This document shows positions 1-13,281 of a stretch of DNA of 13,281 bases, one piece after another (the first letter of the stretch is position 1; each line of letters starts with the position of its first letter). Where the stretch lies: positions 1 through 13,281 of the IMG/VR virus record IMGVR_UViG_2690316028_000002, one strand, 5' to 3'. The notes under the pieces were generated by a model that did no database searches, was not told the origin of the DNA, and worked only from the letters and a program-made list of their open reading frames with translations. This stretch comes from a virus (taxonomy: Duplodnaviria; Heunggongvirae; Uroviricota; Caudoviricetes). The translations under genes and the position numbers were made by a program.

Positions 1-773
1 GCCACATGGGCAATCTGTTCGGCCGTAACGTTGTGGAACTGCTGAGCCATCGCGATCAGGCCTGATGTAGGGTCAGTAGTGAGCTTGCCGTATGCGGCTG
101 CGACTTTTTCCACCGGCACGCCGGAGGCATCAGTAAATCGCGCCACCGCCTGGCTCATTTCATCAAAGCGCGAACTCGCGCCCACCCCCGCGTTGATAAG
201 CTCTCTCAGGGCTTCGCTGGTCTGATTGAACGTCAGCCCCGCTGCCTGGCCGTTTCGTGCCAGCGCCAACATACGATCGGCAGTCAATCCGGCCGTGTTC
301 CCCGACAGTACCAGCGTTTTGTTGAAGTCAGATAGTGTGGATGAGCCCTGGTACCAGGCATAGAACAGCGCACCCGTTGCGGCGGACAGCGCACCGATGC
401 CGACCATCAACGGTGAGATCGTACCCAGTAAGGCCCGGAATGTTGGTATTATCCCGCCAAAGGAGTCCTTAACCTGACCGCCCTGCTGAAGCAGAATAAG
501 CCATGGGTTCTGCCCGCCCGCTAGCTGCGTAGCTATATCGGTAAACTGCGCCGGAAGCATACGCATTGCTGCGTTATACTGGCCTATTGAAATACCCGCC
601 TTGCGCGCGGCGTTCTCCTGGCGGCTAAAGGACTGCTGGATCCGTAGCGCTTCGTCGTTCGCCGCGCTGCCAGTCTGCTTTAATTCTTTTTTGACGTAGT
701 TAAGCTGCTCGTTAAATTTCGTCGAGTTAACGTCAAGGTTAACGACCAGATCACCCACTGCCGTCTGGGCCAT
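1..773 (-). CDS. H: Tail tape measure protein (lambda gpH-like), N-terminal ~257 codons; 3' end lies beyond the window start
   Basis: ATG at 773..771 (plus 'cat'). Hand translation gives MAQTAVGDLVVNLDVNSTKFNEQLNYVKKELKQTGSAANDEALRIQQSFSRQENAARK..., which parallels the lambda gpH N-terminus as I recall it. Reading frame stays open to position 1. Overlaps the T frame stop (751..753) by 23 nt in a different frame. Confidence 0.88.
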   Translation of the reverse strand, partial: MAQTAVGDLVVNLDVNSTKFNEQLNYVKKELKQTGSAANDEALRIQQSFSRQENAARKAGISIGQYNAAMRMLPAQFTDIATQLAGGQNPWLILLQQGGQVKDSFGGIIPTFRALLGTISPLMVGIGALSAATGALFYAWYQGSSTLSDFNKTLVLSGNTAGLTADRMLALARNGQAAGLTFNQTSEALRELINAGVGASSRFDEMSQAVARFTDASGVPVEKVAAAYGKLTTDPTSGLIAMAQQFHNVTAEQIAHV

Positions 774-1116
774 AGCGCACGCCTCCTGAAATACCTGCAG
801 CCTTCGCCATCAGCGTATCGTCATCCGGATCATCGATGTCGATGGCTTCCGGTGCAGAGGAAAGAATGCTGAAACTGTCCGGGGTTAACTCCGGATCGGC
901 AAAAAACAGGGTTGAGATGGTGTAGAGCAAGCCGGAGAAATGTGCGTCCAGCTGCGCATCATGAAAGTAATTGTCCTGGTAGAAGATTTTCCAGTCGCCG
1001 TACTCCGTAGAGGACATGCCAGCAAGCATGGCACGCCAGTCCGGGCGACCGAACTCACGCGCCAGTTTCATGGCAAATTTCAGCTCACTGGCGAGGACTT
1101 TTCCGCAGTAACGGGT
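751..1116 (-). CDS. T: Tail assembly protein T reading frame (lambda gpT-like); probably made only as a G-T fusion by -1 ribosomal frameshifting
   Basis: Track ORF 751..1071 (MKLAREFGRPDWRAMLAGMSSTEYGDW...) matches the lambda gpT start region. The same frame stays open upstream to 1116 and is closed by TGA at 1117..1119, so it overlaps the 3' end of G in the -1 frame. No Shine-Dalgarno serves the internal ATG at 1071. Confidence 0.8.
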   Translation of the reverse strand, partial: TRYCGKVLASELKFAMKLAREFGRPDWRAMLAGMSSTEYGDWKIFYQDNYFHDAQLDAHFSGLLYTISTLFFADPELTPDSFSILSSAPEAIDIDDPDDDTLMAKAAGISGGVRYGPDGSG

Positions 1117-1502
1117 TCAGCGGGATCATTACGTTCTTCACCGGATGAAGTCGGTTCTTCAATGACAGGCGCAATCATCCCGGACAGGAGTTTCACCTTA
1201 TATTCCGCTTCGGCAACCAGTTCGGTCGGCCATGACTGCATGACCTCATCCTGAATCTTTGCCACTTCCGCCGCCGCATTTTCTCCCTGGGAGCCTTTCA
1301 GTTCGTGGCCGTGCCAGAGTGACATCGCCACGAGGAACGCCCCACTTTTTACGGTGAGGGTGATGGCCGCCTGAAAATCGCCAGCTTCAACTGCCTCCAG
1401 CTGCTTCAGGTATTCGAGGTATTCAATACGCTGAAGCGCCGAAAGCTGGAACAATGTGACGCTGCTGCCGTTGCATTCAAGCAGTTCGCTCTTTAGAAAC
1501 AT
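1080..1502 (-). CDS. G: Tail assembly chaperone (lambda gpG-like)
   Basis: 140-aa ORF, the same length as lambda G. ATG at 1502..1500 is preceded by GGAG. Position between V and T matches lambda synteny. Confidence 0.9.
   Translation of the reverse strand: MFLKSELLECNGSSVTLFQLSALQRIEYLEYLKQLEAVEAGDFQAAITLTVKSGAFLVAMSLWHGHELKGSQGENAAAEVAKIQDEVMQSWPTELVAEAEYKVKLLSGMIAPVIEEPTSSGEERNDPAEPVTAEKSSPVS
1098..1104 (-). promoter_or_regulatory. Candidate -1 programmed ribosomal frameshift heptamer (mRNA 5'-GGAAAAG-3') linking G to T
   Basis: The T frame is open only from 1116 downward and G stops at 1080..1082, so the shift must occur within 1083..1116. The only slippery-looking run there is GCG GAA AAG (zero frame) read as GGA AAA in the -1 frame. 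The lambda site is G GGA AAG, so this heptamer is non-canonical. Confidence 0.5.
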
Positions 1503-1538
1503 AATTACTCCGGGGGAACGGGGCTCGCGCCCCGGTTA

Positions 1539-2276
1539 TCAGGAAACAGTGACTTTGCAGATCGCCACAAAGTTACCGTCATTGCTCATAACGATGATTT
1601 CGACGGTGCCTGCCGCCACGCCGGTGACCGTCAGTGTGTTACCGTTAGCCGTAACTGTGGCTTTGGCCCGGTCAGCTGACGATACGCGGAAGGATTTATC
1701 TGACGCACTGGCCGGAAGAACAGATACAACCAGTTGCACAGTTTTACCGACCGCAACAGCTGCAGTGGATTTATCCAGGCTGATCCCCGTGACAGCAATC
1801 GGCGCGGCACCACTGTCTTCTGCCAGTGATGGTTTGCCGTTGTTGGTGATTTTGGCCGTCCGGGTCATGACCTCTTTGGACGTAATGGTTTTACCGAGGC
1901 TGCTCACCCAGCCCTTAAACACATCGACAACACCATTTGGGTATTTGATTTTATATCCCCTCACGGTGCCCTCATCGAACCAGATCACAAGGTCCTGCTG
2001 ACCGGAATCTCCCGGCATCCACGCGAGCGTCAGGTTGGTTTCACCGGCTGATTTCTGCCCCTGCATGGTTGATGTCCAGTCAGCATTCTCATCATCGATG
2101 TAGGTATCATCCTCAGATTCGGCGGTCAGTTCACCGGGCTGCAGGTCTTTAATCTTTGCCAGACGCAGCCAGTCAACATCTGAAAGCGGGTTGGCATAAG
2201 GGTCACCGGTTCCGGTGTAAACCCATAGGGTGGTACCAGCACCTTTTGTTGGTGCCAGCGGGTTTGGTGTGGCCAT
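1539..2276 (-). CDS. V: Major tail tube protein (lambda gpV-like) with a C-terminal Ig-like domain
   Basis: 245-aa ORF. N-terminus ...[26 protein letters not shown]... and the C-terminal T/V/S-rich segment parallel lambda gpV. ATG at 2276..2274 is preceded by GAGGA. Confidence 0.94.
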
Positions 2277-2283
2277 AGGGTCC

Positions 2284-2682
2284 TCACATGTCGTAAGTAA
2301 TGGAATATTTCAGGTCGGCAGAACTCCACAGCGCCATATCGTCATCGCGCTGGTAGTCATAACCCTGCTGAACCATTGTGGTGATAAGGGATTCAAGACC
2401 CGGAACCTCTGCGAGAACCGGATACACCCGCGTTTCCATCCAGTCATCCAGATCAGAATCAGGCACCTGAGCCCCAAGAAAGACTTCGATATGCAGAATG
2501 GCCTGCCAGCTGTCTGCATCCAGTTCTTCCCCGGTGTATTCCGCATCTGTCAGATAGACGGCTACAGCAGGGAAATCTTCCTCTTCGAGCACTGCAGGCC
2601 TGCCGTCAAAATAAATGGCGTCAGTACCAATCGCGCTTTCAAGCGCGTCAATAATTACCTTGCGGATATCGCTGTGTTTCAT
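2284..2682 (-). CDS. U: Tail terminator protein (lambda gpU-like)
   Basis: 132-aa ORF starting [15 protein letters not shown]... with ...FDGRPAV...[10 protein letters not shown]...EYTGEELD..., matching lambda gpU. ATGA start/stop overlap with Z. Confidence 0.94.
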
Positions 2683-3233
2683 CGTGTCAGAATGAGCCTG
2701 AGTTGGTTGGTAAGGGATGCCCGGAGCTCTTTGGGCATATCCGACTCCATAAGCTTCGGCAGTTCTTCTTTAAATGCCGTAGTTAACGGAGCTGCCAGCG
2801 GGATGCTGACTACTTCAATGGGATAACGGGGTTTTGACGTTCGCCTCATGACGTGCCAGCGGCCATTTTTAAGCTGCTGGATGAAACCACCCGGAAAACG
2901 GAACGGCCCTATGCGCAGAACGCTGTTGGCCCCTTTCTTATCCCTTTTTCTGCGGGAAAGGCGCACGCTTGCAGTGCCGAGTTTTATGGCCGGTAAATTT
3001 CCCCGGTTCACCCGGATAAGCGCACGGGGCTTATTGACCGTCGCACGCTTCACTCTGGCGCGTTGCTTTACCAGCTTTCTCGGTACGCGGGTGTCTTTTG
3101 ATACGACCGCAACGCTACGGCTGACAGCACGGTTTGCCACGCGGTTAACGGCCTGCGCCGACGCACGCGGGACAGCCGTTTTGCTGATGCTGTTAAGGTT
3201 CTCTATGGCCTGCTCAAGGCCTTTTATCGACAT
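2679..3233 (-). CDS. Z: Tail completion protein (lambda gpZ-like)
   Basis: 184-aa basic protein at the Z position between FII and U. ATG at 3233..3231 is preceded by GGAG. Confidence 0.88.
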   Translation of the reverse strand: MSIKGLEQAIENLNSISKTAVPRASAQAVNRVANRAVSRSVAVVSKDTRVPRKLVKQRARVKRATVNKPRALIRVNRGNLPAIKLGTASVRLSRRKRDKKGANSVLRIGPFRFPGGFIQQLKNGRWHVMRRTSKPRYPIEVVSIPLAAPLTTAFKEELPKLMESDMPKELRASLTNQLRLILTR

Positions 3234-3242
3234 AGGCGCTCC

Positions 3243-3596
3243 TTAACGGCGACGCGAGGAAGGTGGAGCAGAGCCGTTACCCAGCCAGATATGACAGGAA
3301 CCACAGTCATCCGGATCGATACGATCAACCCAGAATGACCGGCCGTTAATCGTCAGGGTGTCCATACGCTGCAGCTGGCTGACAGTGGAGGTTTCAACAA
3401 ACAGTGTCGGGCTGGTACCTTCAACACGGATCCCCGCTCCCGCATAACCAATGTTTTCTGGATCATCAAAGACACCGACCAGCGTGATGCCAGACAATGC
3501 GCCTGACATCACCTTTGCCTCTGTGCCCATCACACTGCGGATAGTGCCATCAGCTCGCGACATGGCCTCATCAAAGAGATTATCGAAATCAGCCAT
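3243..3596 (-). CDS. FII: Head-tail joining protein (lambda gpFII-like)
   Basis: 117-aa ORF starting MADFDNLFDEA... and ending ...RRR, the same length and termini as lambda gpFII. Confidence 0.93.
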   Translation of the reverse strand: MADFDNLFDEAMSRADGTIRSVMGTEAKVMSGALSGITLVGVFDDPENIGYAGAGIRVEGTSPTLFVETSTVSQLQRMDTLTINGRSFWVDRIDPDDCGSCHIWLGNGSAPPSSRRR

Positions 3597-3606
3597 GCGG
3601 CCCCCT

Positions 3607-4050
3607 TCAGACTTCGCGAGCCAGCCCCTTTGCGATCAGCTCATCGGCATCCTGTTCGGATACGCGGATAATCACTCCGGGCTCAACGATGGATACCGGT
3701 TCGTTACGCGTGGCATGCAGCGCGTCAACATGCAGGGTAGCCAGCGTTTCTACTGATACCCGGTCATCCGTTGTGACCGCTTCGTTTTTTACTTTTTCCG
3801 TGCCATCTACATCGCTGTCGGTGCTGTCGGTGCTGTCGGTGCTGTCGGTGCTGTCGGTGCTGTCGGTGCTGTCGGGAGCATTCTTCTCTCCGTTTTCACC
3901 GTCAATCGAACTGGCATCACCATCCAGCTCCTCTTCCAGCTCAGCAATACGCATCGTAAGTTCCTGAACCGTGCCGCTGGTGCTGACCTCGCGGTTAAGC
4001 TGGGTCCCAAGTTCATTCAGGCGGGCGACCAGCTTTTCTTTTTCTGTCAT
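3607..4050 (-). CDS. FI: DNA-packaging / head assembly accessory protein (lambda gpFI-like) with an internal (STD)n linker repeat
   Basis: Track ORF 3607..4086 begins at a GTG with no Shine-Dalgarno, inside a hairpin. The in-frame ATG at 4050..4048 is preceded by GGAG and gives MTEKEKLVARLNELGTQLNREV..., which parallels the lambda gpFI N-terminus. That start gives 147 aa. Confidence 0.82.
   Translation of the reverse strand: MTEKEKLVARLNELGTQLNREVSTSGTVQELTMRIAELEEELDGDASSIDGENGEKNAPDSTDSTDSTDSTDSTDSTDSDVDGTEKVKNEAVTTDDRVSVETLATLHVDALHATRNEPVSIVEPGVIIRVSEQDADELIAKGLAREV
3804..3866. repeat. Perfect 9-bp tandem repeat (plus-strand unit gctgtcggt, 6 copies plus a 7th imperfect copy) inside the FI coding sequence
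   Basis: Read directly from the sequence at 3804..3866. On the coding strand it encodes (Ser-Thr-Asp)6 followed by Ser-Asp. Confidence 0.9.
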
Positions 4051-4068
4051 GGGAAATACTCCAGAAAG

Positions 4069-4086
4069 GTGGCCCGACAGGGCCAC
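4069..4086 (-). other. Stem-loop between the E stop and the FI ribosome-binding site
   Basis: Perfect 7-bp GC-rich inverted repeat gtggccc / gggccac with a 4-nt loop, 9 nt downstream of the E stop codon on the mRNA strand. Confidence 0.35.
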
Positions 4087-4095
4087 TGGGGGAAG

Positions 4096-5121
4096 TTATG
4101 CCAGTTTGACGGAGACGAATGCGTCAGGGTCTGGCAGCAGCATCAGCGGAGCTGACTGAATCATGGTGAATTCGCGCGCCGGATCCCCCGACTGCACCCA
4201 GTTTTTCGGGTAGCGTGTCGAGGCATTGATACCTTCGCGCTGGGCATCAGCATCAAGAATGCAGCCATAGGTACGCAGGCCACGAGCCTGGGTATTCCCC
4301 AGCACCATTGTCAGGTCCGGCAGATAATTCTTTTTGACGTCGTTTTCGACGTACTGGCCGGAGTACACCACGATGGCCACATCGCCAAACATCCCCTTGT
4401 ATGAAACAGCCATACCCAGGTCTTTCACGGCAGTTTCCAGCTCAGAGTTAGAACCACGACGCGTATCCAGCTTCTTCTCAACAGCCTTGAAGGAACGGAA
4501 CAGCGCCCAGCCTTTCGGATCGAACACAATGATGTTGACCACACCGCTGGCGTTGAGCGCGTAGGCTTCAATGTCATCGGTCGGGTCATACGTTTCTTTG
4601 TCGCGGGTTGACCATGCAGCCGCACCGGCCTGGACAATGTTGTTACCAGCGCTGCGGCCCATATCGACTTCAACAGGCTCGAACGCTTCCCCGGTCATGG
4701 TGTATTTACCGCTGAGCACCGCCGAAACAGCCTGTTTCTCTTCGACCTGAGCAATCGCCAGCTCTTCATCCTTCATGTTCTGAAGGATAATGCGGCGACG
4801 GCGATAGACCGGGTCAGCGAGATTCTGCGGATCCTCATCCGGCAGGCGGCGGAGAGTCATCAGTGGGTTAACTTCGTGTTTCGGCTTCACATAACCCGGC
4901 GTGAATTCAGACGTGCTGCCGCCACGGGAGCGGATCACTTTGCCGGAGACAATCGGCGAGACGTAAAGCGCCATATTGACCAGGCCAGGAATTTGCGACA
5001 GGTAAACCTTCTCTGTACTGAAGGGATAGGTTTCGCGGAAAAAGATACGCAGGAAAAGCGGATCGAATTTGAATTTCTTCTCATTGACCGCCAGCAGTTG
5101 GGCAGTGGTGTAAACGGACAT
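4096..5121 (-). CDS. E: Major capsid protein (lambda gpE-like)
   Basis: 341-aa ORF, the same length as lambda gpE and near-identical along most of its length (MS.YTTAQLLA.NE.KFKFDPLFLR...FTMIQSAPLML). Confidence 0.97.
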   Translation of the reverse strand: MSVYTTAQLLAVNEKKFKFDPLFLRIFFRETYPFSTEKVYLSQIPGLVNMALYVSPIVSGKVIRSRGGSTSEFTPGYVKPKHEVNPLMTLRRLPDEDPQNLADPVYRRRRIILQNMKDEELAIAQVEEKQAVSAVLSGKYTMTGEAFEPVEVDMGRSAGNNIVQAGAAAWSTRDKETYDPTDDIEAYALNASGVVNIIVFDPKGWALFRSFKAVEKKLDTRRGSNSELETAVKDLGMAVSYKGMFGDVAIVVYSGQYVENDVKKNYLPDLTMVLGNTQARGLRTYGCILDADAQREGINASTRYPKNWVQSGDPAREFTMIQSAPLMLLPDPDAFVSVKLA

Positions 5122-5137
5122 AGATTTTTCCCGTAAA

Positions 5138-5159
5138 AAAAGCCGCGCAAGCGGCTTTT
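5138..5159 (-). terminator. Intrinsic-terminator-like hairpin in the D-E intergenic region
   Basis: Minus-strand RNA reads aaaagccgc-uugc-gcggc followed by a run of seven U. GC stem of 5 bp, extendable with A:U pairs. Lies between the D stop (5189) and the E start (5121). Confidence 0.4.
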
Positions 5160-5188
5160 ATGAATGATGATGGTTGTAGAAATGCGGA

Positions 5189-5521
5189 TTAAACGATGCT
5201 GATTGCAGTACCGGCGAACGCGTTACGTTTAATGTTGTCGTCGGTGACGGCAGATGGCCAGAGGACATCTTCAATACGGAAAGAGCCAGATTTGTAATAT
5301 GCCAGTTCCGCGCTGTTCTGGTCTGCGGTTACAGCCAGGATGCCCATTGCCGCGCCAGCATGAGCACCATCCCAGACGGTCAGCTTGCCAGAAGTGGCAT
5401 CCAGCATGAGCGGCGTCATGGCTGGAGTGGAAGCCGTCAGTTCGCCAGGACCATACGCAGTGTGCGCCGGGTCGCTGTTACCGAGCGGCTGGTTATGTGT
5501 GAAAACTTCAGTAATTGCCAT
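5189..5521 (-). CDS. D: Head decoration protein (lambda gpD-like)
   Basis: 110-aa ORF, the same length as lambda gpD; ...GNSDPAHTA...PAMTPLMLD...[10 protein letters not shown] matches. ATG is preceded by GAGG. Confidence 0.95.
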
Positions 5522-5530
5522 GATAGCCTC

Positions 5531-6136
5531 TTAAACGGGGGTGTTTAACAAATCGTCAGCGGCATCAGAAGATGCGCTACCTGCTGGGAGTGCACCGGGT
5601 GCTGTTTCCATCAAACGATCCAGCGCCGTATCGGTACGCGCCTGGGCACTTTGCGGTGCAGCAGCCAGAATGCGCTGTGCGCTCTCTACCGTCATACCCG
5701 GCGTTTCGGCCAGTGCTCGCGCCTGTGACTCACGCCCTTTAGCCTCATCGCAGTTCAGGATGCCCATGATGCGGCTATTCTCTGCAGCTACTGCTGCAGT
5801 AACCTGCGCACTGACATCTACAGGGGCCGCTACGGAAGCAATGGTCGTGTCAACGGTAGTGACCTGTTCAGCTGAGGCAGTTGTCTGAGTTGCTGCCTGG
5901 TCAACTGGCTTAGTGGTCACAGCTGAAGCAGAAGGTGATGGCATAGTTCCTCCAAGGGTTGTTTTTTTGCGTCTGTCGAGTGCTTCGCGCATCACGCCGA
6001 GCGCATCGGTATTGTTAACAAGTTCATCCGCCAGTCCGTTATCCAAAGACTCCTGGCCGGAGAATACTGCCGCTTCGGTGTCCAGCACGTCCTGAACAGA
6101 CATGCCGGTATAAGCGGAAACCTTTTCGGCAAACAT
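5531..6136 (-). CDS. Nu3: Scaffolding protein Nu3, in-frame nested start within the 3' part of C (putative)
   Basis: In lambda, Nu3 is translated from an internal in-frame start in C. Here an in-frame ATG at 6136..6134 (context ...ATRQ-M-FAEKVSAYTG...) gives a 201-codon product, the same length as lambda Nu3. No strong Shine-Dalgarno was seen; the alternative ATG is 11 codons downstream. Confidence 0.55.
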   Translation of the reverse strand: MFAEKVSAYTGMSVQDVLDTEAAVFSGQESLDNGLADELVNNTDALGVMREALDRRKKTTLGGTMPSPSASAVTTKPVDQAATQTTASAEQVTTVDTTIASVAAPVDVSAQVTAAVAAENSRIMGILNCDEAKGRESQARALAETPGMTVESAQRILAAAPQSAQARTDTALDRLMETAPGALPAGSASSDAADDLLNTPV

Positions 6137-6874
6137 CTGACGAGTGGCATCGATACGCGTCTGGAAATCAGCACGCACATCTTTCGGAAGCTTTTCGTAA
6201 GGGTTGCCGTCGACCTTGCGATCGCCGCTGTAAATCAGCGTGACCTCAACGCCGTTAGTTTTGAGCGCAGCGCCATAGTTGCTGTGCGCCATCATGACCC
6301 CAATGGAGCCGGTTCTGGCCGTTTGTGTGACCAGCCGTCGCGATGCCGAACTGGCTATAAGCTGCCCTGCACTGCAGTTCATGTCATTGGCCAGCGCCCA
6401 GATGGGTTTGATATCGCGCATACGGGCTATAATGTCGGCGCAGTCAAACGCCCCGGACACCATTCCACCCGGCGTATCCATATCCAGAAGAATGCCGTCA
6501 ACGCCGGGGTCACTGATTGCCTGCTGCAGGCGAGCAATGATCCCGTTGTAACCCGTCATGCCGGAATAAGGCTGAAGCGCACGGGTTTTACTGACCAGCG
6601 TGCCGGAAACCGGCAAGACCGCGATACCATTTGCCACCTGATAGCTGCGTGATGGACGGGGATCCATGTCATCATCCTCACCAAACAGCGCCAGCGGTTC
6701 GGCTATTTGTCCGGCATCAAGCGTGATGCCAGAGACGGTATCTGTCAGCCGGGTGATGCCCAACTGGCCAGCCAGCGCGCAAAAGAAAACCCGCGCATAG
6801 GCGGGTTCAAGCATCAGCGGCTCATTAAAGGCCATACTGGCAATATGCGGAAGATTACGCAGCTCGTGCGCCAT
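5531..6874 (-). CDS. C: Head maturation protease / scaffold protein (lambda gpC-like)
   Basis: 447-aa ORF starting [40 protein letters not shown]..., matching lambda gpC. Strong GAGGAGGA Shine-Dalgarno before the ATG at 6874. 20-nt overlap with the B 3' end. Confidence 0.94.
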   Translation of the reverse strand: MAHELRNLPHIASMAFNEPLMLEPAYARVFFCALAGQLGITRLTDTVSGITLDAGQIAEPLALFGEDDDMDPRPSRSYQVANGIAVLPVSGTLVSKTRALQPYSGMTGYNGIIARLQQAISDPGVDGILLDMDTPGGMVSGAFDCADIIARMRDIKPIWALANDMNCSAGQLIASSASRRLVTQTARTGSIGVMMAHSNYGAALKTNGVEVTLIYSGDRKVDGNPYEKLPKDVRADFQTRIDATRQMFAEKVSAYTGMSVQDVLDTEAAVFSGQESLDNGLADELVNNTDALGVMREALDRRKKTTLGGTMPSPSASAVTTKPVDQAATQTTASAEQVTTVDTTIASVAAPVDVSAQVTAAVAAENSRIMGILNCDEAKGRESQARALAETPGMTVESAQRILAAAPQSAQARTDTALDRLMETAPGALPAGSASSDAADDLLNTPV

Positions 6875-8447
6875 CTTGCTCCTCCTCGTTTGATTTTTTC
6901 ACTCCGGCCTCAAAAGCTGCAGCGGCCCATGCCGGTGGTTTCAGACCCGCAGCACGACGCTCCATGGTTTCCCGGACCTGCTGGGCAAAAATCTCCTGAT
7001 AATCATCACCGCGTTTGGCGCACTCTTTTTCATACGTGCTGAGACCTGCCTCAATGAGCATGACGGCCTCCTGTACCTCTTTCAGCCCGTCAATTGCCAT
7101 TCGACCAGAGCCAATCCAGTTGGCATTCCCCCAGGCTGTTCTCGCCTCCTGGAAACTGAACCGGGCTTTCGAAGGAAGCGTGACCACGCGGCGGACAATC
7201 GCCTCTTCAAGCCAGCAAAGAAACATCTGACAGGCCTGTCGGGATGCCACAAACTTGCGACGCCCCATAAAGTACGCCCAGGACTCGTTAGCACTTGCGC
7301 GTGCGGTCGAGTAGCTCATCTGCGAATAGTTTCGCGAAAGCTGCTCATACGACACACCAAGCCCAGCGGCAATATAACGCAGCAGGGACTGTTCAAAAGT
7401 CGAGTAGCCGTTATCGGTATCCTGCGCCGACTGAAGGTTGAGAGAATCACCCGGCAACAGGTGTGGAACCCTTGCCCCACCCAGGCGAACAGGCGCAGCT
7501 GAGTAATAGGACGCCATTTCACCGAGCCAGCCCGTAAGTTTGCTCTGCTGCTCTTTATTATCCGCGCCGAGAATAAAGTCCATCGCCGATTGGGTATCCA
7601 GTTCACTCTCGATGGTAGCGGCATACATAGCCTTCACTATCGCGCTCTGGAGCTGGGTATTTTGCAGGGTATCGAGCATTTTCATCTGCTCCATCACGCT
7701 GTAAAACGCATTGGCCCCACGGGTCTGTCCATCCTCCATCGGTTCGAATACATGGATAAATGAAGGTCGACCGCCGGGTAGTTCGCGAGGAATGTAGGTC
7801 CAGTTCTGCGCCATCCAGCCGGGATAACCATCGTCGCTGACGTAATATCCCAGCGCAGCACCGCTATCATTTATTTTCACACCGGCGCGACAGTTCCGGG
7901 TATCACCGATATTATTCGGATTGCTGACGCGCTTCGGACTGACCATTTTGAACTGAGTACGGAAAAGACGCGTTGAATCGCTGTCCCAGGTCGCCTGCGT
8001 GCATAATTCACCGTTAAACGCGTGCATGGCCACACCTTCTCGGATCATCATCGTAAACGTTCGCTTACGCTCGGCATCAATCCCGCAAAAGTCGTCCTCG
8101 GCATACTCATTCCATGCAGCTTCCACATCCCGCGAGAATGCCCGTGAATCCTCCTCATTTATTCCCAGATAACGCCAGCTTGGTCGATAACTGAGTCTGA
8201 AAAATGACCCGACGATGTGGTCCTGGTGGAGCTGCACGGCGTTTGCCGCGTAGCCATTATTTCGCACCAGATCGTCAGCGCGGGCATTTCCGCGAGAATA
8301 GTTGGGTAGGAGTGCGGCATCTGCACTTTCACTCGGCGGATTCCAGCCTCGCAGCTGCCCACCAAACCCGCCTCCACCGCCATGATATCCTGCGTATTCC
8401 CGAAGGGATGTTTTCCCGTCAGGTCCCACCAAAGATGGTATTTTCAT
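6855..8447 (-). CDS. B: Portal protein (lambda gpB-like)
   Basis: 530-aa ORF containing ...[32 protein letters not shown]..., very similar to lambda gpB. ATGA overlap with the W stop. Confidence 0.97.
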
Positions 8448-8650
8448 ACGTAAAACCCTGCTGGCCCCCGGCGTCGTGATGTGGTGCCAACCTGAGATTC
8501 AAGGTCAGCAATATATTTTTTGAGATCGCTGACTGAAGTGGCTGTAAATTCCACTCTTCGACCGTCTTTCTGTACCGTCGCCACGCGCTTTCCCATCATC
8601 AGGTCATGTAACGCAGCGCGCGCGGCATCCAGTTCAGTCTGTGTTGCCAT
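8444..8650 (-). CDS. W: Head-tail joining / head completion protein (lambda gpW-like)
   Basis: 68-aa ORF, the same length as lambda gpW; ...[41 protein letters not shown]...[10 protein letters not shown] matches. Start overlaps the A stop. Confidence 0.94.
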
Positions 8651-10572
8651 TATTCATCTCCAGATAATGCCCGCGCGTAATCCGCCAGGGTCTTGTTATT
8701 GTTACGGCTGCCTTCTTCCTCCAGCAGGCTGGCCAGAAGTGAATCAAGATTTAGCTGCCAGCGGGATATGCTTATACGCAGCGCCGCCAGTGCATAAACA
8801 AAGCAATCGAGCGCCTCATTTCGTCGTTTTTTGCTGTCCCAGACGATCTTTTTCTTTCCGTCTACCCATTTTTCCACCTGCTCTTCAGCTGTTAGTTGTT
8901 GGGCCTCTGTTAGATCGTAGATTTCTGGGTTATTCGGGAAATGAACCGCTCCCGCCAGCGGCTCGTCTCTTTGCGCCACCAGCGTGAAACGGTTATAAAT
9001 CTGCTCTTTTGCGGTGTCTGTTCCTACCTCTGTGAGGTAAACACCATTCTTGTTACGCTTGCGTGGCATGTTCGCCACTGGCTTTCCATAAACCGACGCC
9101 CCCTTTATAGGGATCACACGAAACAGACCGTGTTTTTTTGAGCGGTTGTAGACGATGGTGGGATCAATGCCGCCAATATCCCAGCAAGTGCGGGATATAA
9201 CCATTTCGAGACCGTTCTGGCGCTTATACGTCCTGTTGATCGCTTCATCAACTCGAGCGAGAGTCGACTCATCATCATGACGACCCATAATGATAATTTT
9301 GTCGATAAGCCAGCTTTCCTCTCCCGGCCCCCATCCCCAAACACGCATTTCGTAACGGTCAAGCTGGGAGTCAATACCCGCTGTCAGATATGCCACTCGC
9401 TCCGGCACAGACGCTTCAAAGTGCTCTTTTCGTTCCGCTAAAACTTCAGCATCGGGTCGTTCACCTATTTTCGGTTCCCACGTTTCGCCCAGGGTCGTGT
9501 TAACGAAAGTTTTTCGCTTACCCGTATCACCTTTTGTTTTTATCCAGTCCTTGACGATCTGCACCCAGGTTGTGAACGGGCTATATGCGGTCCAGATGTG
9601 GAATGTAACGCTGTCAGGAGGTTCAATTTCGGTACCGGATGAAGAAAACCAGTTAAGGCCGTCTCGTGTCCAGATACCTGTTTCATCACAAATATACCTG
9701 GCCTCCAGAAATTCCAGCTCCTGTTGTTTAATCACACAGGCATTGTGTTCACAGAGGTAGTAAACGCTGGCAGGTTCTCCCGGAGACCATTTGAAGCCAA
9801 ATGGTGTCTCTTTATCACCGAATTTCAGATACTGCTCTTCCCCACAGTGTGGGCATGGAACATGGAACCGAAGAAAATGTTCAGACTCCTTAGCAGCTCT
9901 TTCTATCTGGCACGTACCTTTGACTTTCGGTGTAGATCCGCGAATGGATTTCGGCCATACAGAACCCTCAATACGCTTATCACCCAGAAAGGTGGGAGAA
10001 CCTTCTTTCTCGATGTCATCATCGAAAGCGGCGAGCTCGTCGTAGCCAGCCACATCAACTGATTTTTCACGGTAGTTTTTTGCAGCCTTACCGCCCAGGC
10101 ACCAGAAACCACGACCATTCGAGAAACGCTTCATGCTCAGCGTATTGTCCCGGTGTTTTTTACCGTACCAGGGAGCAAGCGCCAGCAACGTCGGAATATC
10201 ACGAATGGTCGGTTCTACATGAGACTTCATGAAGTTTTCAGCATCACCGTCGGTTGGTAACCATATTAGGGAGTTACGCTGTTTATGTTGGATGAAATAT
10301 GCGTAAACGCCGAGCAACATTTTTGAGTAGCCGACACGAGCCGATTTAACGACATTCACCTCGCGAATATAGTCATTACCCATCGCATTCATAATTGCAC
10401 GCTGAAATGGCAGTGTTTCCCAGCGCCCTTCCTGGTAGGCAGACTCTTTCGGGAGATAATAATTCTCATCTGCCCATTCAACTGCTGTTTGCGGTTGCGG
10501 CCGGTACAGCGAACGTAACCCCGCCCGCGCAGAGTGCTGCAGCCCCTTAACCTGACTGTTCGATATATTCAC
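8650..10572 (-). CDS. A: Terminase large subunit (lambda gpA-like; ATPase/translocase plus cos endonuclease)
   Basis: 640-aa ORF starting MNISNSQV... with high similarity to lambda gpA throughout. The start codon is GTG at 10572..10570, immediately after an in-frame TGA, so no ATG is available. 26-nt overlap with the Nu1 3' end. Confidence 0.97.
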
Positions 10573-11092
10573 TCAGCAACCCCGGTATCATTTCATCCAG
10601 CGCAGCTGCCTTGTTCATGGCCTTAATGATGTCCTTCTTGAGGAAATCAATATGTCGGTTCTCCAGCTCCGGGAAGCGCCGCTGAACCGACAGAGGTATT
10701 CCATCGAGAATGCTGGCGATTTCTCCGGCTACCCGCGACAGCACGAACGTGCAGAATGCGGTCTCCACCACTTCAGCGGACTCTTTTGCATTTTTTAATT
10801 CCTGAGCGTCAGCCTGAGCTCGCGTAAGTCGGTGTCGCTCATATTCAATCGTGCCAGGTTGAAGATCGGACTCAGAAGCGATACGGAGATCTTCAACTTC
10901 CTTCCGCAACTTTTCATTTTCTATAGCTGCATCGCGCGCACTGTACCATTCGATTGCAGCAGCAGATTCAAAGAGAACCTCATTACCTTTGCCACCACCG
11001 CGGACAACCGGCATACCTTGCTCCTGCCAGTTCTGAATCGTTCGGACGCTTACCCCGAAAATTTCGGATAAGCGTTTTTTGTTAACCTCCAT
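10547..11092 (-). CDS. Nu1: Terminase small subunit (lambda gpNu1-like; cosB-binding winged-helix N-terminus)
   Basis: 181-aa ORF, the same length as lambda Nu1; MEVNKK...IRTIQNWQEQGMPV.RGGGKGNEV... matches closely. ATG at 11092..11090 is preceded by AGGAG. Confidence 0.96.
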   Translation of the reverse strand: MEVNKKRLSEIFGVSVRTIQNWQEQGMPVVRGGGKGNEVLFESAAAIEWYSARDAAIENEKLRKEVEDLRIASESDLQPGTIEYERHRLTRAQADAQELKNAKESAEVVETAFCTFVLSRVAGEIASILDGIPLSVQRRFPELENRHIDFLKKDIIKAMNKAAALDEMIPGLLSEYIEQSG

Positions 11093-11099
11093 GGCTTAC

Positions 11100-11260
11100 T
11101 CCTGGCAAAAAACAGAGAAAGGAAACAATCAACGGTAAACTTCCGTTTTCCTTGCTCAGCATTTCCTTTCTGGAGAGAGGACGTTTTTAACAAAAACAAT
11201 GAGTAAACAAGAAGAAGAACGGAAATGGCATAAACCAGAAAATTTTCATAAATAGCGAGA
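11100..11260 (-). promoter_or_regulatory. cosB-like terminase-binding region with R-element-like motifs
   Basis: GGAAAC/GTTTCC-type motifs lie at about 11110..11127, 11153..11169 and 11211..11228, separated by an AT-rich segment. The layout parallels lambda R1, R2, (IHF site), R3 as recalled. Boundaries are approximate. Confidence 0.6.
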
Positions 11261-11261
11261 A

Positions 11262-11285
11262 TCTGCGCGGACGCCGCCCCGTAAC
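11262..11285 (-). other. cosN-like nicking site; predicted 12-nt cohesive end 5'-GGGCGGCGTCCG-3' at 11279..11268
   Basis: The minus strand reads TTACG-GGGCGGCGTCCG-CGCAGA; the lambda junction as I recall it is TTACG-GGGCGGCGACCT-CGCGGG. Nick positions are assigned only by analogy. Confidence 0.6.
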
Positions 11286-11302
11286 AAGGCGGATCGCCGG
11301 AA

Positions 11303-11309
11303 AGGACCC
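11303..11309 (-). promoter_or_regulatory. cosQ-like element (minus-strand GGGTCCT)
   Basis: The heptamer sits inside a stretch (CCGGAAAGGACCCG) that matches the lambda right end as recalled, at similar spacing from cosN. Confidence 0.55.
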
Positions 11310-11337
11310 GCAAACGATAATAATTATCAATTGCATA

Positions 11338-12066
11338 CTATCGACGGCACTGCTGCCAGATAACACCACCGGGGAAACATTCCATCATGATGGCCGTGCG
11401 GACATAGGAAGCCAGTTCATCCATCGCTTTCTTGTCTGCTGCCATTTGCTTTGTGACATCCAGCGCCGCACATTCAGCAGCGTTTTTCAGCGCGTTTTCG
11501 ATCAACGTTTCAATGTTGGTATCAACACCAGGTTTAACTTTGAACTTATCGGCACTGACGGTTACCTTGTTCTGCGCTGGCTCATCACGCTGGATACCAA
11601 GGCTGATGTTGTAGATATTGGTCACCGGCTGAGGTGTTTCGATTGCCGCTGCGTGGATAGCACCATTTGCGATAGCGGCGTCCTTGATGAATGACACTCC
11701 ATTGCGAATAAGTTCGAAGGAGACGGTGTCACGAATGCGCTGGTCCAGCTCGTCGATTGCCTTTTGTGCAGCAGAGGTATCAATCTCAACGCCAAGCGTC
11801 ATCGAAGCGCAATATTGCTGCTCACCAAAACGCGTATTGACCAGGTGTTCAACGGCAAATTTCTGCCCTTCTGATGTCAGAAAGGTAAAGTGATTTTCTT
11901 TCTGGTATTCAGTTGCTGTGTGTCTGGTTTCAGCAAAACCAAGCTCGCGCAATTCGGCTGTGCCAGATTTGGCTGGCAGATCACCAGACAGCAACGCGCC
12001 ACGGAAAAACAGCGCATACAGAACATCCGTCGCCGCGCCGGACAACGTGATAATTTTATGACCCAT
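11338..12066 (-). CDS. Hypothetical protein, 242 aa, function unknown; cargo gene in late-operon orientation abutting cosQ
   Basis: ATG at 12066..12064 is preceded by AAGGAAA about 8 nt upstream. TAG stop at 11338..11340 lies 29 bp from cosQ. No motif I can recognise (no Walker A, no obvious catalytic signature). Similarity to the lambda right end stops at this gene. Confidence 0.75.
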   Translation of the reverse strand: MGHKIITLSGAATDVLYALFFRGALLSGDLPAKSGTAELRELGFAETRHTATEYQKENHFTFLTSEGQKFAVEHLVNTRFGEQQYCASMTLGVEIDTSAAQKAIDELDQRIRDTVSFELIRNGVSFIKDAAIANGAIHAAAIETPQPVTNIYNISLGIQRDEPAQNKVTVSADKFKVKPGVDTNIETLIENALKNAAECAALDVTKQMAADKKAMDELASYVRTAIMMECFPGGVIWQQCRR

Positions 12067-12085
12067 GATTTATTTCCTTTTAGAC

Positions 12086-12139
12086 GTGAGCCTGTCGCAC
12101 AGCAAAGCCGCCGAAAGTTAACGGTTTGCCCAGGCTCAC
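12086..12139. repeat. Perfect 9-bp inverted repeat (gtgagcctg ... caggctcac) with a 36-bp spacer, in the 5' leader of the 242-aa gene
   Basis: Arms at 12086..12094 and 12131..12139 are exact reverse complements. The spacer contains a GTTAAC palindrome. The repeat lies about 20 nt upstream of the 242-aa gene start codon. Confidence 0.8.
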
Positions 12140-12438
12140 AACTGAAAGACTTTCTACGGTGTGCGCGTGCGATGCGCGTAGAAGACTGATTTATCAACCT
12201 GTCTTTATATCAGGATTCATTACCTGACTATTTGTGGGTAAAGTTCGTAGTGCGCTGATCGTGCAAAATGATTTTAGTTGGGAACAGTTCGCAACTCTGT
12301 CCCATAAAAATCAGCATATTCCCATCTATCCCATATCCAGCGCATTGACCATCGGGATACTGAAGGGAGATTCCATCATCTCTTAGAAAGATCACCATCT
12401 CTTTTGTTTCAATTTGCATATAGCTACCTGGAGGATTT

Positions 12439-13053
12439 ATGAATACAAGGATTTTCATGGACTATTACCATGAGATTGATTTTCCATCTTTATTCGCGAG
12501 AGCAGTGGAAAGCGATGACGATGTGGGTACTACATTGCGCATTCACCTACTTTGTGAGCGCATGGTCGAAGCATGGATATGCGCATGCTGTGACTGCCAA
12601 GATCTCTTTGGAAGAGATAAAAACAAACTTTTAATCGAATGTAATACTAAAATATCCATGGCGGGAAACCTGGGAATCCCCACGGAACTTATGAAATCAC
12701 TTAAAACCATCAACTCAATGCGTAATGACCTTGCACACAATCCATCAATACAAAGCATTGCTGATTCAAGGATCCAGAGCCTGACGGATACTCTGACTGA
12801 ATACTTTAAACAGCATCCAACGGAACCCAGCATGGAAGAATCAAAACTGGGTATTTTTAACGCCGAGAATCAATTAACCGAAGAAGTTTCCTTAGATAGT
12901 GACAGTTCAAAAAACAGACTTAAGTTAATCTTGCTGTTCAGCAAGTTAATGCAGGCGTTAATGCAATTAGTTGCAGCTAATCATAATGGGCGCTGGGATA
13001 ACCAATTTAGCCAATTCGTTTACCATGTGACCATGAACGCAACAAAGAGATAA
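12439..13053 (+). CDS. Putative HEPN-domain protein (R-x4-H motif), 204 aa; AT-rich moron, candidate abortive-infection or exclusion RNase
   Basis: ATG at 12439 with GGAGG 4 nt upstream; TAA stop followed 5 nt later by a perfect hairpin. Orientation is opposite to the late operon and the gene is visibly AT-rich compared with the structural genes. The protein has ...SMRNDLAHN... (R95-x4-H100) and a Cys cluster (C48, C50, C51, C53). HEPN assignment rests on the motif only. Confidence 0.8.
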   Translation: MNTRIFMDYYHEIDFPSLFARAVESDDDVGTTLRIHLLCERMVEAWICACCDCQDLFGRDKNKLLIECNTKISMAGNLGIPTELMKSLKTINSMRNDLAHNPSIQSIADSRIQSLTDTLTEYFKQHPTEPSMEESKLGIFNAENQLTEEVSLDSDSSKNRLKLILLFSKLMQALMQLVAANHNGRWDNQFSQFVYHVTMNATKR

Positions 13054-13058
13054 ATCTA

Positions 13059-13077
13059 AGCCCGTTTTGTACGGGCT
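13059..13077. terminator. Hairpin between convergent genes (agcccgt-tttgt-acgggct), putative bidirectional terminator
   Basis: Perfect 7-bp stem with a 5-nt loop, 5 nt after the stop of the 204-aa gene and about 10 nt after the stop of the small minus-strand ORF. Flanks are moderately T-rich, more so on the minus strand. Confidence 0.5.
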
Positions 13078-13086
13078 GTTGCATTA

Positions 13087-13218
13087 TCACAGGCACTCAG
13101 TGAATGCCTGCTGTAATGCCGCGATCAGCCAATCAACAATTCTGGCTGCGTCACCTGGCGGAATGGTGAATGCCGGAAGTCTGTGCCATTTGGCTTTTGC
13201 CATCTGTTGCTCCGTCAT
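13087..13218 (-). CDS. Small hypothetical ORF (43 aa, or 38 aa from the second ATG), speculative
   Basis: Hand-translated: MTEQQMAKAKWHRLPAFTIPPGDAARIVDWLIAALQQAFTECL. Bounded upstream by an in-frame stop at 13234..13236. Weak Shine-Dalgarno. Convergent with the 204-aa gene and ends at the shared hairpin. Too short for the ORF track. Confidence 0.25.
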   Translation of the reverse strand: MTEQQMAKAKWHRLPAFTIPPGDAARIVDWLIAALQQAFTECL

Positions 13219-13281
13219 TATCCGTTGCAGGGGTTATTTTTGATTTATCCGCTCAGGGGGATATCCATTATCAAGCCCACC

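Follow-up and report, generated by a model that had tools for sequence, protein, structure and literature searches.

A phi80-type tail assembly inhibition module between the lysis genes and cos of a lambdoid prophage, and the probable kinship of its defence protein with HepS

Background

Which genes occupy the roughly 1.9 kb between the lysis genes and the cos site of the prophage in IMG/VR record IMGVR_UViG_2690316028_000002 (Caudoviricetes), and what would they do for the lysogen and for the phage? We analysed positions 1 to 13,281 of this record, hereafter the window (13,281 nt in its full length), which presents a lambdoid prophage on its minus strand, with the packaging and head genes running leftwards. 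A first-pass annotation, made from the sequence alone, had described positions 11,338 to 13,218 as a two-gene cargo island and likely accessory or defence hotspot, in which a HEPN-like gene is set against the late transcript. The island is almost certainly the TaiEcA/AtiEcA module of phage phi80. It has already been published and nothing in the island itself is new; what the window holds is the phi80 module carried in another lambdoid backbone. The new leads that remain are the homology between Tai and the nuclease HepS, a segment of the neighbouring gene orf66 that resembles the tail fibre protein J, and the conserved leader of orf66.

Tai is a family of "tail assembly inhibition" defences in phages, phage-inducible chromosomal islands (PICIs) and P4-like satellites (He et al., Nat Commun 2024, PMC11364771). 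According to that work, TaiEcA is constitutively produced in the phi80 lysogen and leaves DNA entry and replication unaffected, and HK106 and HK544 release tailless capsids, seen by electron microscopy. Escape from TaiEcA is by mutations of J, the central tail fibre, in its C-terminal part; the J of phi80 is itself TaiEcA-sensitive, and orf64 (AtiEcA) is the antidote. When orf62, orf64, orf65 and orf66 were deleted one by one, a titre drop was reported only for orf64, and the survivors of the orf64 deletion carried transposon insertions in orf63; HK106 given atiEcA grew on phi80 lysogens (PMC11364771). Binding of Ati to Tai was demonstrated for another Tai/Ati pair. The two genes were described as a "noncontiguous operon", with ati in the late transcript governed by Q and tai on the other strand, and Q overexpression lowered TaiEcA. 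The usual location of Tai was given as "before terS". Plasmid-borne Tai versions protected cultures at low multiplicity of infection (MOI), and at population level Tai protects at low MOI, with collapse at high MOI (PMC11364771).

HepS of Salmonella Gifsy-1 is made constitutively as a tetramer that inhibits itself (Sargen et al., Nature 2026, PMC13043305; PDB 9oij, 9oik). It is activated by the direct binding of J residues 902-933, with F924S as an escape mutation, and then acts as a tRNA anticodon nuclease; the binding is also thought to prevent J trimerisation. The outcome is that no infectious particles are formed, with little effect on DNA replication, and it is reached via tRNA cleavage. 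The H105A change abolishes defence, overexpression of HepS is non-toxic, and protection is seen only at low MOI (PMC13043305).

Results

Identity of the island

As a megablast query against phage records we used positions 11100-13281 of the window. The sole near-full match was phi80, in which JX871397 44261-46146 corresponds to window 11272-13157 at 99.6% identity (8 mismatches in 1886 nt). The phi80 annotation of the matched part comprises cosQ, PHI80_66, PHI80_65, PHI80_64, PHI80_63 and the end of rha. At the protein level there is one amino acid (aa) change in orf66 and none in orf64, Ati being identical to PHI80_64, while two changes in orf63 leave 202 of the 204 residues of Tai identical to PHI80_63. 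Precisely this gene is TaiEcA, which He et al. define in their Table S3 as JX871397 44,365-44,979 (PMC11364771).

The module has the same orientation, the same overlap of its genes and the same place before the small terminase gene as in phi80 (Table 1). It differs in its flanks. The phi80-type sequence begins at 11272, within cosN, and the leftward cos/Nu1/A flank is of HK225 type, with a 97% match to HK225 over the leftmost 236 bases of the query (window 11100-11335). At the other end rha has been replaced and a 33-nt remnant is left, the right edge of the phi80-type module being 13157/13158, within the former rha. We also note the sequence at the mosaic junction in cosN (window 11266-11281), where the cohesive end on the minus strand is GGGCGGCGTCCG and phi80 has GGGCGGCGACCT.

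As the first-pass annotation had proposed, cosQ does lie beside the island (placed by homology with the phi80 annotation), and the absence of lambda from the megablast matches fits a region that is unlike its right end. Its two genes, the open reading frames (ORFs) of 242 aa (orf66) and 204 aa (tai), were both confirmed, but the count falls short, since at least three genes are present and ati had been missed.

An antidote gene between tai and orf66

The missed gene lies in what had been read as a 372-bp AT-rich divergent control region. The size is right (12067-12438, G+C 0.435), but the gap is not empty: it holds ati and a conserved leader of 102 nt. In its 76-aa form ati overlaps the start of tai by 20 nt. 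The only methionine of this form that is invariant among homologues is M14, at which a 63-aa core begins, and this shorter form is the one given by most gene callers. No Pfam match was obtained for Ati, to a nucleotidyltransferase or to any other family.

Being adjacent to tai, opposite in orientation and in the late direction, ati has the arrangement of the published noncontiguous operon. That tai opposes the late transcript path is supported by the nearly identical MS 115-1 locus, where the module is flanked by the genes for holin, lysozyme and lysis protein (with Q upstream) on one side and by Nu1/A on the other, all on one strand. The G+C content of tai (0.403) and ati (0.398) is below that of the whole window (0.525), with orf66 at 0.50; the profile that the first-pass annotation had suggested as a check thus sets the two genes apart, and their low G+C fits foreign cargo.

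Salmonella phage FSL SP-016 has, at 2621-2956 (minus strand), an ORF of 111 aa between TaiSalA and the leader, where phi80 has ati. Ten loci carry a related ORF upstream of the leader. The 111-aa ORF is a candidate for a non-homologous antidote of TaiSalA-type proteins.

Tai as a HEPN protein related to HepS

The HEPN-like character ascribed to the 204-aa product is borne out by motif, fold and homology. Members of the HEPN superfamily share an Rx4-6H motif and an all-alpha fold, and Tai has both. The motif, R95-N-D-L-A-H100, is invariant across 19 close homologues. A full HMMER search with Tai returned 207 cluster representatives; in the 80 of them that were aligned, with 17-40% identity to the query, R95, N96 and H100 are at least 90% conserved, and likewise L33, H36, E40, K71, A75 and N92. 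The AlphaFold2 (AF2) model is confident, with a predicted local distance difference test (pLDDT) score of 86.7, and its top structural matches include the non-catalytic HEPN-fold proteins MtlR and YggD. Among named families the yield was low: for neither Tai nor Ati did Pfam, NCBIfam or PADLOC return a significant family, and the matches of Tai to CARF-HEPN and Abi profiles in PADLOC and PHROGs were faint.

Tai is homologous to HepS in both sequence and structure. The Tai family profile matched the HepS sequence with an E value of 5.3e-15, and RNxxAH of Tai aligned to RNKYAH of HepS, which holds the catalytic H105. We infer that Tai is a HEPN protein of the HepS family and a sensor of J, with the catalytic Arg, Asn and His conserved. 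The conservation of this motif makes Tai a putative ribonuclease. The conservation of R95, N96 and H100, the homology to HepS and the shared population phenotype (Tai and HepS are alike in protecting at low MOI and collapsing at high MOI) together indicate that the catalytic site is probably used, and we consider the chance that the nuclease step of Tai is HepS-like to be somewhat better than even.

The C-terminal tail of Tai (aa 182-198, window 12982-13032, plus strand) is conserved in the 19 close homologues, with H182, W186, N188 and Q192 invariant. The AF2 model is of low confidence from about residue 181, with pLDDT below 50 for residues 188-204. In HepS the termini are disordered until a beta-sheet is formed with the J peptide (PMC13043305). 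A tail that is conserved yet poorly modelled, as in apo HepS, may serve in the recognition of the peptide of the J central straight fibre, although the likeness between the two is suggestive only.

The two systems also differ. HepS stands alone without an inhibitory partner, whereas Tai has a cognate antidote in ati; unlike the HepS system, phi80 keeps a Tai-sensitive J and is protected by ati; and the genomic positions of the two genes are not the same. The literature that we searched contained no paper with both "HepS" and "tail assembly inhibition", nor any with the latter and "HEPN". In fact, HEPN is nowhere mentioned in the text of He et al., and Gifsy-1 HepS is missing from the Tai homologues that they list (PMC11364771); phi80 is nowhere mentioned in the HepS paper (PMC13043305).

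A proposed mechanism and the points that weigh against it

In the lysogen, tai would be transcribed from its own promoter and Tai made constitutively, as the literature describes for phi80; the first-pass annotation had likewise expected the HEPN-like gene to be expressed from the lysogen. When another lambdoid phage develops, Tai would recognise its central tail fibre J and tailless, non-infectious capsids would be released. Judging by homology, the most likely target of Tai is nascent J, bound in its central straight fibre region so that J trimerisation is blocked, and J-bound Tai probably switches on as an RNase, most likely as a tRNA anticodon nuclease in the manner of HepS. As for ati, it would be carried by the late transcript, which depends on Q and extends from the lysis genes across the island into cos, Nu1 and A, and hence would be made only in lytic growth, when Ati would neutralise Tai and the phage's own J-dependent tails could form. 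Late transcription is antisense to tai and would lower Tai somewhat. The leader and orf66 would share the same late transcript and be separable from tai/ati. We put the probability that the region as a whole is a right-end accessory module of a phi80-type lambdoid prophage, whose defence and antidote genes form a noncontiguous operon, at about 0.8.

A switch of this kind, in which late read-through would shut tai off, had been suggested by the first-pass annotation. The idea agrees with the published model of the noncontiguous operon, and the lowering of TaiEcA by Q overexpression speaks for it. TaiEcA did not fall after mitomycin C induction, however, and the essential self-protection is the AtiEcA protein.

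That result with mitomycin C (PMC11364771) is one of several points that weigh against the mechanism as we propose it. He et al. view Tai as a direct inhibitor of assembly; J was insoluble in their hands, and direct binding between TaiEcA and J was not demonstrated (PMC11364771). Tai is about 15% identical to HepS in the structural alignment, and lambda is restricted by HepS and by none of the tested Tai versions, hence the specificity of the two differs. No sigma-70 promoter for tai was reported by the default scan, and a relaxed scan gave a single poor candidate at 12345-12372. Finally, the J gene of this prophage, which would decide whether it needs Ati, lies outside the window.

Variability of the slot between the lysis genes and cos

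The comparison of this junction across related genomes supports the reading of the slot as variable and as an accessory or defence hotspot. The Tai/Ati module resides in the interval between the lysis side and cos/Nu1, and the content of this slot varies among relatives. HK225 has the same cos/Nu1 flank, with the end of Rz about 100 bp from cos and no cargo. EC23HZZ201 keeps the 242-aa orf66 and has an S49 peptidase in place of tai/ati, and in mEp237 and mEp213 truncated genes of the orf66 kind are accompanied by other small ORFs. The same genes are therefore not present in essentially all relatives, as they would be in a core region.

The module also occurs in front of different packaging genes. 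We found tai, ati and orf66 together both in MS 115-1, with a lambda-type Nu1/A, and in Nissle 1917, with a DUF1441-type terminase, and tai/ati ahead of an HNH/Terminase_2 packaging module in an Enterobacter prophage. A Tai-family gene sits in the slot just upstream of the conserved leader in only 9 of the 93 viral loci that have 1.5 kb or more of sequence ahead of it. Of 5426 complete E. coli genomes only 80 contain 80% or more of the region, and laboratory strains, for example DH10B, DH5a and JM83, make up many of the listed carriers.

orf66 and its conserved leader

The 242-aa product of orf66 is N15 gp59-like and matches phrog_17079 with an E value of 1.9e-169. Its 633 homologues are mostly from Citrobacter, Salmonella and E. 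coli prophages, and RefSeq names it either "Fur-regulated protein" or "phage tail tip fiber protein"; a literature search on the origin of the former name gave nothing relevant. Part of the protein resembles the central straight fibre domain of J. Residues 119-151 match PF09327 with 23.3 bits (cut-off 22), and relatives reach 27-34 bits. PF09327 spans residues 845-972 of lambda J, which is the central straight fibre domain and includes the HepS trigger peptide 902-933. By BLASTP, aa 82-141 of orf66 and residues 1063-1129 of phi80 J are 33% identical over 67 aa (E value 3e-4). In a four-way alignment F924 of lambda J is one of only three invariant columns; it equals F126 of orf66, which is invariant in 24 aligned sequences of the orf66 family. 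These values have to be read with care, given how short the similarity is and that its motif recurs as a unit in fibre proteins. A comparison by hhalign of the orf66 family with the lambda J fibre domain alone was not significant, the orf66 profile gave no match to PDB sequences, and the AF2 model is unusable (pLDDT 39).

Antisense to the start of orf66 and to the leader lies PHI80_65, an ORF of 99 aa (window 11890-12189, plus strand) that differs from phi80 by 2 residues. It is probably not a gene, and we treat it as a doubtful overlapping annotation in phi80.

The leader is a noncoding stretch directly upstream of the Shine-Dalgarno (SD) sequence and ATG of orf66, with a G+C content of 0.55 as measured over 12075-12180. 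It is about 95% identical in 8 phages despite unrelated flanks, and phi80, mEp213, mEp237, HK639, Fostie, Salmonella FSL SP-016 and Aeromonas AsXd-1 are among the leader-bearing phages compared. Its central 32-mer was found in at least 120 IMG/VR contigs, and the leader in 97 of the 5426 E. coli genomes. Most copies follow a terminator-like hairpin with a T run. The genes whose SD and ATG it precedes fall in 14 sequence clusters and show many different N-termini. Fragments of the J fibre (PF09327) were seen in 5 of the 6 representative genes scanned behind the leader, one of them below the Pfam cut-off; other genes behind it are unrelated, such as a family of 485-511 aa. In HK639 the leader unit lies within the tail gene cluster, and in FSL SP-016 the order TaiSalA, small ORF, leader and gp59-like gene mirrors that of phi80.

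A long hairpin is predicted for the leader (-41.5 kcal/mol, z -2.0), in which UCUUU pairs with the SD. No compensatory changes were found in 90 sequences, which had been picked by the exact 32-mer and are hence biased towards conservation. The Rfam search of window 10900-13281 gave no match to the leader at E<=1, the single hit being a chance-level one to snoU105B (E 0.93) elsewhere in the region. The widespread leader, an undescribed conserved element, stands ahead of accessory genes of the moron type in temperate phages of enterobacteria. It could control translation, serve as an RNA processing site or be a conserved junction at which cassette exchange is promoted.

Rival readings of Tai and orf66

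The reading closest to that of He et al. is that Tai is purely stoichiometric, binding J and blocking tail-tip assembly, with the HEPN fold a mere scaffold and Rx4H non-catalytic. The infecting phages replicate their DNA normally and make capsids that are tailless but otherwise assembled (PMC11364771), the binding of HepS, too, is thought to impede trimerisation of J (PMC13043305), and the top structural matches include the non-catalytic MtlR and YggD. We nevertheless regard this reading as rather unlikely, in that R95, N96 and H100, at least 90% conserved among homologues so distant from Tai, are hard to explain without catalysis, while HepS reaches the same outcome through tRNA cleavage and loses its defence with H105A (PMC13043305). 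A HEPN protein beside a small overlapping partner that neutralises it also recalls a toxin/antitoxin addiction module that would stabilise the prophage, with the anti-phage activity as a side effect; the loss of ati does select for inactivation of tai (PMC11364771), and the weak profile matches to Abi and CARF-HEPN point the same way. Yet ati is in the late operon, where it is not expected to be expressed in the lysogen, and lysogens with constitutive Tai are healthy. What the loss of ati costs is phage titre after induction, not the life of the cell, and plasmid-expressed Tai versions protected cultures at low MOI (PMC11364771); HepS, too, is non-toxic when overexpressed (PMC13043305). An addiction module is thus very improbable.

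The third alternative concerns orf66, which could be part of the system as a mimic of the J trigger, either luring away sensors of the HepS/Tai type as a decoy or poisoning the J trimers of a competitor in a dominant-negative way. Its similarity to the J central fibre does span the HepS trigger region and keeps the Phe equivalent to F924, the genes behind the same leader elsewhere mostly carry PF09327 fragments, a Tai-family gene stands directly upstream of the leader in the 9 loci mentioned above, and FSL SP-016 has the same layout with a TaiSalA that is only 23% identical to TaiEcA. On the other hand, the deletion of orf64 is the only one named as lowering the titre (PMC11364771), and the orf66 family (633) is far commoner than the TaiEcA-type genes (19) and mostly occurs without Tai. 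The similarity is also short and marginal (the 23.3 bits and the non-significant hhalign result given above), its motif is a repeated structural unit of fibre proteins, and there is no usable structure model. We hold a role of orf66 in the system to be doubtful, and keep to the reading in which tai and ati form the module and orf66 is separable from it.

Flanking features

Directly after the tai stop there is a hairpin; the first-pass annotation had listed a shared hairpin and given the plus-strand gene a terminator of its own. The hairpin is real, but neither strand has a U tract and it is absent from the results of the terminator scan. The 43-aa ORF further right, which had been taken as a possible small convergent gene, exists but turned out to be a recombination scar, a chimera across the junction 13157/13158. 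Over approximately its first 20 codons (MAKAKWHRLPAFTIP) it matches the beginning of an unrelated gene of 123 aa, which has the same post-lysis position in E. coli CX05; the remainder crosses the tail of phi80 rha in a frame other than that of the gene. The ORF is unannotated in MS 115-1. We also considered this ORF as the carrier of the Rha C-terminus and rejected it, as QVTQPELLIG with its stop codon lies in another frame. Several Klebsiella phages contain the 40-nt stretch 13081-13120 at 100% identity and have nothing else in common with the region.

Table 1. Positions of the features of the island and its flanks in the window
Feature	Position	Strand	Remarks
taiEcA (phi80 orf63, PHI80_63), HEPN-fold defence protein, 204 aa	12439-13053	plus	against the late operon direction
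HEPN Rx4H motif of Tai, R95-N-D-L-A-H100	12721-12738	plus	alignment of homologues
atiEcA (phi80 orf64), counter-defence protein, 76 aa as annotated	12228-12458	minus	late transcription direction
Conserved 63-aa core of atiEcA	12228-12419	minus	homologues mostly 63 aa
Conserved noncoding leader, 102 nt	12076-12177	minus	directly upstream of orf66 SD and ATG
orf66, 242 aa, N15 gp59-like	11338-12066	minus	late direction; 1 aa differs from PHI80_66
orf66 aa 82-141, similar to J central straight fibre domain	11644-11823	minus	Pfam, BLASTP, alignment
Right side of cos: last bases of cohesive end (~11268-11279) and cosQ (~11280-11334)	11268-11334	minus	phi80 annotation transferred
Nu1 (small terminase)	10547-11092	minus	Pfam Phage_Nu1, E 1.6e-95
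Large terminase	8650-10572	minus	ORF list; portal and head genes further left
7-bp GC-rich hairpin	13059-13077	both	directly after tai stop; -12.5 kcal/mol (plus), -11.6 kcal/mol (minus)
Hairpin after the rha stop remnant	13081-13119	minus	-23.5 kcal/mol
Remnant of phi80 rha 3' end, last 10 codons and stop	13125-13157	minus	comparison with phi80
43-aa ORF, recombination scar	13087-13218	minus	chimera across junction 13157/13158

Discussion

The arrangement of the island had been compared with the way in which lambda carries bor and lom. These are accessory genes in the late operon that are expressed from the prophage, bor being opposite to late transcription, and their products are envelope proteins for the host. 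They do not pair a defence with an antidote, and they have no sequence similarity to Tai/Ati, lambda being absent from the megablast matches. HEPN-MNT toxin-antitoxin systems differ in other respects: Ati has no nucleotidyltransferase match, the partner is late-expressed and not co-expressed, and Tai is non-toxic alone according to the literature (PMC11364771). Tha of Staphylococcus aureus prophages is classed by Sargen et al. as a wholly separate system, in which a non-specific RNase responds to another tail protein (PMC13043305); it is set apart from Tai here by this published description.

A wider proposal can be formulated from these observations, namely that Tai and HepS together make up one family of prophage HEPN nucleases for which nascent J is the trigger, with tail assembly inhibition being at least in part abortive-infection tRNA cleavage, and that orf66/gp59-like genes are a mosaic family of J-fibre fragments, always behind the 102-nt leader, that act as trigger mimics, either decoys or poisons of J trimers. 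Taken in all its parts this proposal is speculative and rather unlikely to hold.

What the locus may offer is a link between two independent papers: the protein described in 2024 as a direct blocker of tail assembly (Tai) and the tRNA nuclease of 2026 that J activates (HepS) seem to belong to a single protein family. With its J-like segment, orf66 points to trigger mimics as a possible class of proteins. Should Tai prove catalytic, the mechanism put forward for an entire family of phage and satellite defences would need revising, and Ati would be the first known protein inhibitor of a HepS-type nuclease.

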